A DNA stretch of 64,000 bases from Stenotrophomonas sp. MMGLT7. GTDB taxonomy: Bacteria; Pseudomonadota; Gammaproteobacteria; Xanthomonadales; Xanthomonadaceae. The stretch lies in assembly GCF_021168555.1 (NCBI RefSeq), contig NZ_JAJOZS010000003.1, positions 276,061 through 340,060 of the forward strand. Direction: 5' to 3'. Shown in pieces: positions 56,728-57,537 of the stretch; positions within the stretch are counted from its first letter, which is position 1; every line of letters starts with the position of its first letter. Below the pieces are notes generated by a model. That model was not told where the DNA came from and did no database searches. It saw only the letters and a program-made list of their open reading frames with translations. Position numbers and translations under genes: made by a program.

Positions 56728-57537
56728 GCTGTTGCTGTTGCTGTTGCTGTTGCTGTTGCTGTTGCTGTTGCTGTTGCTGTTGCTGTTGCTGTTCTGCCCC
56801 CTCCCTTGCGCGAAGCGCAGGGGAGGGCTGGGGAGGGGTGCTCTTGCAGTTGCTTTGGCTCTTGATCTACCGGGTTCCCTTCCGAAGCGGCGGAGCCAGT
56901 GGGTAAAACCCCGCAGGGGCGGCGCACATGGATGTGCGCCGTTCGCGGCAGGGGCAGGATGCCCCTTCCGCGAATTCCCGCTGGCGGAGCAGACCTGGAG
57001 CGCGCAGCGCGGAAGGCGCGCAGGCAGGGCGTGCTTTCTTTTGGTTACCTTTTCTTTGCACGAGCAAAGAAAAGTAACTCGCTCCGCAAGGAGCGAAAGC
57101 CCTTGATCTTGCTGTTGTTATTGCCGTTTTTGTTCCACCACGCCAAACGAGGACAGAAGCAACAACTAAAGCCAAAAGCTTTCGCGCCCCTTCGGGGCAC
57201 GAGCCACCTTTCTTTGCTCGTGCAAAGAAACGTGGCCCAAAGAAGCGCTTTCCCACAGCCGCAGGCTGGTCAAGCACGCCCTGCCTTCGCGCCCTCCGCG
57301 CTTACGCGCTCCGGGTTCGCGGATCCGGCAGGAACTTACGGAAGGGGCATCCTGCCCCTGCCGAAAACGGCGCACATCCATGTGCGCCGCCCCTGCGGGG
57401 TTTACCTGCCGGATCCGCCGCTACGGAAGGGAGCCGATAAGTCAAAAGCCAAAGCAAGAGCCCCCCTCCCCAGCCCTCCCCTGCGCTTCGCGCAAGGGAG
57501 GGGGCAGAACAGCAACAGCAACAGCAACAGCAACAGC
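56728..57537. repeat. ~810-bp composite palindromic element: (GTTGCT)~11 + 56-bp inverted terminal repeat … internal hairpin-rich inverted halves … 56-bp inverted terminal repeat + (AGCAAC)~4.5
   Basis: Left terminus gttctgccccctcccttgcgcgaagcgcaggggagggctggggaggggtgctcttg (56791-56846) is the reverse complement (55/56) of right terminus 57453-57510. The (GTTGCT)n and (AGCAAC)n arrays are complementary. Inner sub-hairpins (ggcgcacatggatgtgcgcc / ggcgcacatccatgtgcgcc; ttctttgcacgagcaaagaa / ttctttgctcgtgcaaagaa) mirror about ~57140. Confidence 0.85.

Follow-up and report, generated by a model that had tools for sequence, protein, structure and literature searches.

What is a 774-nt inverted repeat doing between two genes of one operon, and what is it made of? 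The question is raised by a 64,000-nt stretch of DNA from Stenotrophomonas sp. MMGLT7 (contig NZ_JAJOZS010000003.1; hereafter the window, to which all positions without a locus label refer). Here an inverted element forms the spacer between the gene of an HlyD-type adaptor, which ends at 56670, and the gene of an ABC ATPase (57612-58298), with two MacB_PCD/FtsX permease genes lying 3' of the latter. We found that the element very probably consists of two structured repeat units of ~250 nt, placed tail-to-tail, which belong to a multi-copy family. The units may be RsmA-binding, terminator-like RNA modules of this dispersed family that alter the operon in which they sit, and we put the probability of this combined reading at about 0.55.

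The initial annotation, made from the sequence alone, had recognised a large inverted element at 56728-57537 between the adaptor and ATPase genes, and both the element and its position hold. Compared with its own reverse complement by self-BLAST, the segment 56764-57537 was 75.6% identical over 817 columns (E = 1.7e-165). An inverted-repeat search resolved outer arms of 93 nt (56764-56856 and 57445-57537; 96% complementary), a second pair of 99 nt (56906-57004 and 57305-57403; 86% complementary) and further nested arms around a centre near 57140. As had been claimed, the divergence between the arms grows toward this centre, the inner parts being about 80% alike. When the whole spacer was folded as one RNA, it reached -681 kcal/mol, compared with -395 +/- 8 for shuffled sequences (z = -35), a stability far beyond chance. 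It was also correctly set apart from insertion sequences (IS), integrons and CRISPR arrays. The idea of a novel element was only partly right, since parts of it are in Rfam as RF01731 and RF02421. The palindrome is a composite mosaic rather than a single novel element, built of a simple sequence repeat (SSR), a 45-nt GC palindrome, the ~250-nt unit and a centre, with its parts mirrored. The features are as follows.

56727-56793, + strand: left hexanucleotide SSR, (TGCTGT)x11.2, perfect (Tandem Repeats Finder); T/G-rich on the forward strand of the adjoining unit.
56794-56838, + strand: left 45-nt GC-rich palindromic module (CTGCCCCCTCCCTTGCGCGAAGCGCAGGGGAGGGCTGGGGAGGGG), resembling repetitive extragenic palindromes (REP); identical to the reverse complement of 57463-57507.
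56839-56870, + strand: degenerate hexamer tract (TGCTCTTGCAGTTGCTTTGGCTCTTGATC) running into the left unit (inverted-repeat search).
56871-57100, + strand, sense to the operon: left repeat unit, a TwoAYGGAY-like body followed by a 3' hairpin module (nhmmer homologues, covariation).
56895-56985, + strand: closing stem of the left body around hairpins H1 and H2; 56895-56903 pairs with 56977-56985 (helix 1, 8/8 pairs changed on both sides).
56920-56941, + strand: H1, CGGCGCACA-UGGA-UGUGCGCCG, an NGGA tetraloop closed by A-U and then C-G (ACAUGGAUGU).
56942-56974, + strand: H2, UUCGCGGCAGGGGCA-GGA-UGCCCCUUCCGCGAA, a GGA loop without the consensus N.
57033-57044, + strand: X1, pyrimidine tract GCUUUCUUUUGG, a parallel (mirror) image of the purine arm X3.
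57043-57079, + strand: pyrimidine/purine hairpin GGUUACCUUUUCUUUGC-ACGA-GCAAAGAAAAGUAACU, the most conserved module of the family; its outer 5 bp covary (helix 5).
57080-57100, + strand: small GC hairpin CGCUCC-GCAA-GGAGCG, then AAAGC; the stem letters differ in nearly every copy while pairing is kept.
57101-57183, no strand: non-palindromic centre of degenerate hexamers, T/G-rich and then A/C-rich.
57184-57449, - strand, antisense to the operon: right repeat unit (nhmmer E = 2e-38 against the left unit).
57184-57200, - strand: GC hairpin of the right unit.
57201-57238, - strand: pyrimidine/purine hairpin of the right unit.
57236-57246, - strand: X1 of the right unit.
57245-57271, - strand: extra 27-nt hairpin of the right arm.
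57336-57367, - strand: H2 of the right unit.
57368-57389, - strand: H1 of the right unit.
57405-57416 with 57321-57332, - strand: closing stem of the right unit, a different 12-bp sequence, internally compensated.
57463-57507, - strand: right 45-nt GC-rich palindrome, which matches the reverse complement of the left module exactly.
57508-57537, - strand: right hexanucleotide SSR, (AACAGC)x5.0, complement of the left SSR (Tandem Repeats Finder).

The left SSR thus has the roughly 11 copies first estimated, and the right one has 5.0 rather than about 4.5. The left unit folded on its own at -133 kcal/mol (z = -6.1). The two units are 86% identical over aligned columns, and the right one is 87-91% identical to Xanthomonas units (loci L087 and L031). 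The GCTTTTGAYYTA lead-in also precedes units in Xanthomonas and Stenotrophomonas. The spacer carries spurious open reading frames (ORFs) of 124-276 aa, generated by the repeats; a protein-coding role for them was rejected in view of non-triplet indels, compensatory stem changes and the lack of coding-type conservation. At L018 17600-17830, in another intergenic region, three more 45-nt CCCCTCCC...GGGGAGGG modules stand in alternating orientation, and because of these separate copies we regard the module as an independent repeat, similar to REPs and to bacterial interspersed mosaic elements (BIMEs).

The evidence for a family came from two scans. The first used a pattern taken from the hairpin core against one genome per species, and its loci were thus ascertained through the core. 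At least 120 genome stretches from many genera matched. The matches listed came from Xanthomonas, Stenotrophomonas, Lysobacter, Pseudoxanthomonas, Rudaea, Nevskiales, Pseudomonas/Stutzerimonas and Pasteurellaceae, from many Paraburkholderia, Caballeronia and Burkholderia, and from a few Clostridia and Selenomonadaceae. Several of them were tiny contigs or contig ends, as expected of a repeat that breaks assemblies. With the left unit as the query, nhmmer found full-length homologues in about 30 loci, and the window unit matched Pseudomonas units over nearly its full length with E-values of 1e-7 to 2e-10. Single 2-Mb Paraburkholderia replicons held at least 33-40 family places each, all of them without annotation. 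The flanking genes differ from locus to locus (SecF, Sir2/OsmC, peptidase M48/SDR, glycosyltransferase, Crp, ArgA-like). No transposase was found within 2.5 kb of the units in about 140 loci, a search that would miss a single-copy mobiliser elsewhere in a genome, nor any specific recurrent neighbour; the ORFs beside units were spurious frames within repeats and members of abundant housekeeping families such as aldehyde dehydrogenases, ABC ATPases, LysR and SDR proteins.

Since the first loci had been ascertained through the core, the sampling was repeated in metagenomes with a pattern derived from H2 (the body-ascertained sample). True units were present in 118 of the 120 loci, three of them on one 2.4-Mb contig. 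Their arrangements were 45 single, 16 head-to-head, 13 tail-to-tail and 2 tandem. Because all of these occur, the basic entity is the ~250-nt unit, and the inverted pair of the window is one arrangement of it. Among units with enough 5' flank, 23% had a perfect hexamer SSR no more than 150 nt from the 5' end, compared with 2.5% of background windows; as this rate holds whatever the neighbouring genes, the SSRs look like a by-product of the repeat. Against plasmids, the whole element gave no match by BLAST at E <= 1e-5 and just the short core at a relaxed threshold. The phage search gave one marginal match only. Most core matches on viral contigs were rejected as chance, as they belong to an unrelated syntenic phage gene cluster; the viral contigs L007, L013 and L017 match the core region of the unit beyond the search pattern by BLAST, and L013 also does so by nhmmer. 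The core sequence string had no literal occurrence in the papers searched.

The units do not all have the same body. A second body type, joined to the same 3' module, was seen in Pasteurellaceae (L069, L080, L120) and in Xanthomonadales (L021, L079, L051, L067 and the right arms of L144 and L145). It forms a long hairpin with the loop ...GUCUGAGCG(A/C/U)AGCGAGUU..., as in ...CUGAGCG-AGCGAGUU...; no Rfam family matches it at gathering score, and it may represent a further structured RNA not yet described. The part common to the whole superfamily is the 3' module.

A search of relatives for further copies and empty sites, which the initial annotation had proposed, found empty sites at the adaptor-ATPase junction in addition to the multi-copy family. 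The junction is free of the repeat in P. suwonensis (106 bp) and S. rhizophila (166 bp), and also in Pseudoxanthomonas sp. 10H (L022), where its 467 bp hold a called 97-aa ORF (9577-9870) with hydrophobic stretches and no Pfam family on record. Two units of the type with GGA hairpins are present in the window and in L018-L020, one GGA-type and one second-type unit in L144 and L145, and a second-type unit with other sequence in L021. L147 has just one unit, which GC modules and SSRs enclose in a symmetric shell. The junction is a hot spot. Over aligned columns, the identity of the window arms with Xanthomonas units from non-orthologous loci is 87-92%; with the units of the orthologous L018 site it is 79-83%. 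Between strains with ATPase genes of 98.5-99.6% identity, SSR copy number and accessory modules vary: L144 and L145 (ATPase genes 98.5% identical) have (TGCTGT)x9 and no such tract, respectively, and differ by an extra ~130-bp module. The predicted SSR length variation is thus real.

Two further observations concern these relatives. In the right-hand unit of L144 compared with L145, an accessory hairpin (GACCAGCCATTCGGCTGTTG...) has been moved and inverted, lying beside the conserved hairpin in one case and within its stem in the other. The gap between the ATPase and permease genes of L144 (3687-3890) measures ~200 bp, compared with 11-25 bp in relatives, and holds two direct copies of another repeat (CACGGCCA-GCCGCCCGCAGGGTGGCGCA...); a second junction of the same operon has thus been colonised by a different repeat family.

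These data allow us to weigh the view that the 810-bp palindrome is a single non-autonomous transposon, i.e., a MITE (miniature inverted-repeat transposable element) moved in trans by an unseen transposase. The inverted termini, the presence/absence polymorphism at the junction and the multi-copy family across phyla would all suit it. So would the extra hairpin of the right arm, which a Xanthomonas pair at a non-orthologous locus also has in its right arm; however, this hairpin was also seen in single or left units (L147, L051, L021). When the window flanks were compared with the empty S. rhizophila and P. suwonensis junctions, no target-site duplication, another feature that had been proposed for checking, was found. 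Besides the lack of a transposase or recurrent neighbour near the units, single units outnumber pairs, pairs are both head-to-head and tail-to-tail, the same site can hold a heterologous pair or just one unit, and the edges are SSRs of variable length instead of defined termini. We consider a transposon of this kind very unlikely, and the suggestion of one 810-bp MITE gives way to the ~250-nt unit as the basic entity.

A local origin fares slightly worse. An inverted duplication in situ of unit, module and SSR, for example by template switching at the hairpin-rich centre, with decay from the centre outward, would explain the symmetric shell, the identical 45-nt modules, the complementary SSRs and the divergence that rises to a non-palindromic centre, and it might also explain the symmetric shell around a single unit in L147. 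However, the two arms are less similar to each other (86%) than either is to Xanthomonas units (87-92%), and their closing stems differ while each is internally compensated. One event would predict uniform divergence, whereas the arms are 96% alike in their outer 93 nt and about 80% alike farther in, and other strains have two different body types at this junction. The initial annotation had offered an inverted duplication of a structured non-coding RNA locus as one option. This option comes close, as each arm is a structured, covarying unit related to TwoAYGGAY.

The SSRs had further raised the idea of a phase-variation switch for the ATPase and permease genes, for which the hexamer copy number offers the raw material, differing between the arms (11.2 and 5.0) and between near-identical strains (9 in L144, none in L145). 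Both SSRs are intergenic, starting 57 bp past the adaptor stop (56670 to 56727) and ending 74 bp before the ATPase start. Phase variation finds no support, because neither SSR is part of an ORF or of a recognisable promoter spacer; no sigma-70-like promoter was found beside or across them, and hexamers would keep the reading frame anyway. A hexamer SSR near the 5' end in 23% of the units, regardless of neighbouring genes, also speaks against a switch specific to this operon, which we regard as extremely unlikely. Just past the adaptor stop and upstream of the left SSR, a separate hairpin (56682-56716, GCUGUCC...GGACAGC) may be the adaptor gene's own terminator or stabiliser, older than the insertion.

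We then return to the ~250-nt unit as a structured module. Six helices are supported when 21 units, which range from Pseudomonas to Xanthomonas, are aligned; paired cells make up 92% of the total, compared with 43-48% in slid controls. Changes on both sides were found in 25 of 38 pairs, and 0/500 shuffles reached the observed score, a statistic that overstates independence because the aligned sequences are related, so that the slide control is the fairer one. The forward strand was more stable than its reverse complement in 20 of the 21 units, by a mean of 9.9 kcal/mol, and this bias points to a function as RNA, or as single-stranded DNA, in the forward sense. Most likely, the unit acts as a folded single strand, RNA in the forward sense. 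Our confidence in an RNA-level function is moderate.

The loops of the body suggest what such an RNA may bind. In the 21 aligned units, the H1/H2 loop positions C-A-N-G-G-A-N-G are invariant or nearly so; the H1 loop is invariant while its stem covaries. The window H1 (...CACA-UGGA-UGUG...) equals the RsmE/CsrA consensus (A/U)CANGGANG(U/A), and its loop resembles the consensus RUACARGGAUGU from systematic evolution of ligands by exponential enrichment (SELEX); both consensus sequences are quoted in PMC6849547. Its context in both window arms, CAUGGAUG, contains AUGGAU, which fits AYGGAY. Of the oriented units, 36 carry GGA hairpins on the forward strand and 1 on the antisense strand, and GGA triplets number 143 forward and 67 reverse. 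Per body, the window arms have 6-7 forward and 4-6 reverse, and the Pseudomonas units 8-10 and 1-2.

Matches in Rfam, searched with permissive thresholds, point the same way. Pseudomonas homologues scored 44.7, 42.8, 42.1 and 42.1 bits on RF01731 (TwoAYGGAY, clan CL00106), for which the gathering score is 43. At the orthologous L018 site, where H2 has the canonical loop ACAGGGAUGU and both loops are thus canonical, the unit scored 35.9 bits with a hairpin-for-hairpin alignment, and the best match of its partner arm was RsmW. The outer stem that encloses two hairpins in TwoAYGGAY is also present in the window, where helix 1 is compensatory at all 8 pairs. Among the Firmicutes core loci no match to TwoAYGGAY was found at E <= 0.1, and one of them (L096) has GGA-loop hairpins on inspection. 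Taken as sequence evidence, this makes the unit body most likely a divergent TwoAYGGAY-class module whose NGGA loops fit a high-affinity CsrA/RsmA site. That the units bind RsmA is a more tentative proposition, to which we give slightly less than even odds.

The 3' module consists of a U-rich tract, the pyrimidine/purine hairpin and the GC hairpin. In the conserved hairpin, the 5' arm is always of pyrimidines and the 3' arm of purines, and the body-ascertained copies keep this hairpin with compensated stems (CUUUCUCUUG/CAAGAGAAAG, CUUUCUUUUG/CAAAAGAAAG). A simple consensus scan found a terminator-like site on each strand. On the + strand (57011-57039), a GC stem precedes the U-rich X1; on the - strand (57097..57078), UUACUUUUCU comes after the small GC hairpin. 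Of 49 genes on the 3' side of single units, 34 converge on the unit (p = 0.009). The 3' module looks like a site of transcript ends. RF02421 matched the window at 57068-57192 with 15.9 bits, below its gathering score of 44; L018 scored 20.9 bits, and Caballeronia L023 (48.6 bits) was the sole copy above the gathering score. In three metagenome loci (L155, L178, L189), the hairpin loop carries a GC-rich insertion of 30-65 nt, with ...CCCTTCGGGCCGGCTTCGCCGTTCGC... common to L155 and L178, which suggests a second small element that targets this loop.

The module contains one more regularity. X1 keeps step with the purine arm X3 as a parallel image, with U for A and C for G in the same direction, and is thus the mirror of the pyrimidine tract X2. 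In a longest-common-substring test, the parallel image scored above a direct repeat in 143 copies, level with it in 39 and below it in 1; among distinct X1/X3 variants the count is 15 to 1 for the parallel image with 3 ties, and the relation is kept in at least six sequence variants. Pyrimidine-motif triple helices are known from RNA triplexes of the ENE/MALAT1 type (ENE, element for nuclear expression) and from H-DNA mirror repeats. The parallel image matches the requirement of U.A-U and C+.G-C Hoogsteen triples or of an H-DNA mirror repeat, X2 being the Watson-Crick partner of the purine strand whose parallel image is X1, and it suggests that a triple helix could form in the 3' module. In contrast to these triple helices, the arms of the hairpin here are just 8-9 nt. 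Because the covarying outer stem leaves X1 no linker, the triplex and the full hairpin look mutually exclusive. Three-way covariation in parallel orientation is an unusual signal, and may point to a triple helix.

From these parts, a mechanism can be proposed for the operon. The unit body would bind one RsmA dimer through H1 and H2, and the 3' module would terminate or process transcripts. The left unit, which is in sense orientation, would then place two RsmA sites and a terminator-like hairpin between the adaptor and ATPase genes. Where RNA reads through, pairing of the two arms would give about 370 bp of duplex, which RNase III would probably accept as a substrate. As a net effect, expression of the adaptor and of the pump would become uncoupled. 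A polar effect on the ATPase and permease genes is plausible in view of the long duplex and of the terminator-like sites.

Several points weigh against the proposal that the units are RsmA-binding, terminator-like modules, in addition to the relatedness that inflates the shuffle statistics. The window arms had no match to RF01731 even at E <= 10, because their H2 loop is shortened: its context, GCAGGAUGC, is without the Y of AYGGAY and the loop is a 3-nt GGA. GGA hairpins are confined to one body type, and the Burkholderiaceae, Pasteurellaceae and second Xanthomonadales bodies are without them; since so many members do without these hairpins, RsmA binding cannot be the function of the common 3' module. 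On the 5' side of single units, no orientation bias was found (25 vs 25), so read-through from an upstream gene is not the rule. The simple consensus scan found no sigma-70-like promoter in 56400-57800, either for the units or for the ATPase gene, and the GacA box was not systematically searched. The local hairpins would face competition from the inter-arm duplex in transcripts that read through. Self-BLAST found no second copy of the element in the window, where it is a single locus, and the sole experimental datum on the family is a reverse-transcription PCR (RT-PCR) of the Burkholderia fragment RF02421.

The main rival holds that the family is a selfish or neutral mosaic like BIMEs or REPINs (REP doublets forming hairpins), i.e., structure-prone DNA at permissive sites, with generic hairpin effects, such as termination or protection of mRNA ends, and GGA loops that RsmA does not use. 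Modules in alternating orientation and a GC palindrome that also clusters alone are what such a mosaic would show. The same applies to gene 3' ends that face the 3' side of the unit, which is typical of REPs and BIMEs, to the heterogeneous junction content between strains, and to bodies without GGA that carry the same 3' module. On the other hand, the loop letters CANGGANG are kept from Pseudomonas to Xanthomonas while the stems change, and the GGA hairpins are strictly strand-specific (36 vs 1). Moreover, units are 87-92% identical across genera (window arms and Xanthomonas units, aligned columns), compared with 90.5% for the ATPase genes of two Stenotrophomonas lineages, which speaks for constraint at the sequence level or recent transfer and not neutral decay. 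On balance, we consider the neutral mosaic unlikely, but a real contender. A bolder extension of our own proposal is that the repeats are horizontally mobile RNA modules that plug transcripts into the Csr/Rsm network or titrate RsmA as a sponge of the Xanthomonadales, with the 3' module as a triplex or a triplex-hairpin switch controlling RNA stability or termination, in which case a dispersed repeat would carry the bacterial equivalent of ENE-type triple-helix elements; this we regard as clearly unlikely.

How does the repeat relate to known systems? TwoAYGGAY was described in 2010 as a probable RNA of unknown function from the human gut, gamma-Proteobacteria and Clostridiales (Weinberg et al. 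2010, PMC2864571), and has been proposed as a CsrA binder, without validation (PMC4333381). Both have two adjacent hairpins with AYGGAY or NGGA loops inside an outer stem, share the odd range of gamma-Proteobacteria and Clostridia-type Firmicutes, and are not tied to 5' untranslated regions (UTRs). In contrast to TwoAYGGAY, the window copy with its shortened H2 loop falls below detection, and the motif here makes up only the body of a larger unit, which also has a 3' module with the conserved pyrimidine/purine hairpin. This unit is multi-copy, often in inverted pairs, SSR-associated and presence-polymorphic, none of which is described for TwoAYGGAY in the cited literature. The orphan motif of 2010 thus appears here as cargo of a larger multi-copy repeat that is spread across phyla.

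The sponges of the Csr/Rsm system (CsrB, RsmX/Y/Z/W and RsmU) also present GGA in hairpin loops with a spacing suited to a dimer on a GGA-rich strand, and theirs is the clan of the best Rfam matches. However, they are single-copy genes with dedicated promoters and many GGA sites, whereas the window family has two canonical loop sites per unit on one strand, dozens of dispersed copies and no promoter found. RsmU is a single locus in the comEA 3'-UTR, restricted to Xanthomonas, and the only RsmA antagonist reported there in PMC7694677. Nothing links it to the window repeat family, and as a candidate member it was rejected because its sequence is unrelated; the multi-copy small RNA (sRNA) candidates of Tang et al. 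2020 were rejected likewise, as their supplement sequences are unrelated. If the GGA hairpins do bind RsmA, there would be a large unseen set of RsmA sites in Xanthomonas, Stenotrophomonas, Lysobacter and Pseudomonas.

The second Rfam family, RF02421 (Bp1_Cand684_SIPHT), is an RT-PCR-validated sRNA candidate between pdhB and lpdA, and the words "repeat" and "multiple copies" are absent from the searched passages of its description (PMC3521395). In the Burkholderiaceae version of the repeat, this family spans the purine arm, the GC hairpin and the outward flank, and like the window element it sits between two adjacent genes. The difference is that in those passages it is a single sRNA candidate and not part of a repeat, and that the Burkholderiaceae units are head-to-head with another body without GGA hairpins. 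What is new is that a body of the TwoAYGGAY class and a 3' module of the RF02421 class are combined in a mobile-looking, SSR-associated, palindrome-forming repeat, of which only fragments had been described earlier.

Among dispersed repeats, BIMEs and REPINs, mobilised by REP-associated tyrosine transposases (RAYTs), are the closest in layout: intergenic palindromic mosaics in alternating orientation, multi-copy, with doublets that form long hairpins, near gene 3' ends. The window element is likewise a multi-copy intergenic mosaic with modules in alternating orientation. However, REP units measure 20-40 nt and have a GTAG or CGTC head (PMC3733652), whereas the window unit has ~250 nt, a multi-helix covarying fold and conserved loops, and no RAYT was seen in its vicinity. 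As judged by reading without a dedicated pattern search, such a head is absent from the start of both the unit and the 45-nt module (CTGCC...). MITEs of the Correia/NEMIS and ERIC type are also non-coding dispersed hairpin elements that can sit in operons and alter transcript processing or termination. They have defined terminal inverted repeats, target-site duplications and an IS origin, none of which was found for the window element; its arms are inverted over their full length, though the termini are unequal SSRs. The present repeat inserts within operons, forms giant palindromes and associates with microsatellites. It also breaks short-read assemblies, yields spurious ORFs and is un-annotated in public records.

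Two minor observations remain. In L134, a metagenome-assembled genome of the Lysobacteraceae, sRNA-Xcc1 (RF02221, 83.8 bits) lies at 2874-2961, about 400 nt from a repeat unit at 2213-2498. In the window itself, nested tandem repeats with periods of 15, 30 and 66 (CTTCTTGGCCGGCGC...) occupy 39673-39930, and probably encode a low-complexity Ala/Lys-rich protein on the - strand.

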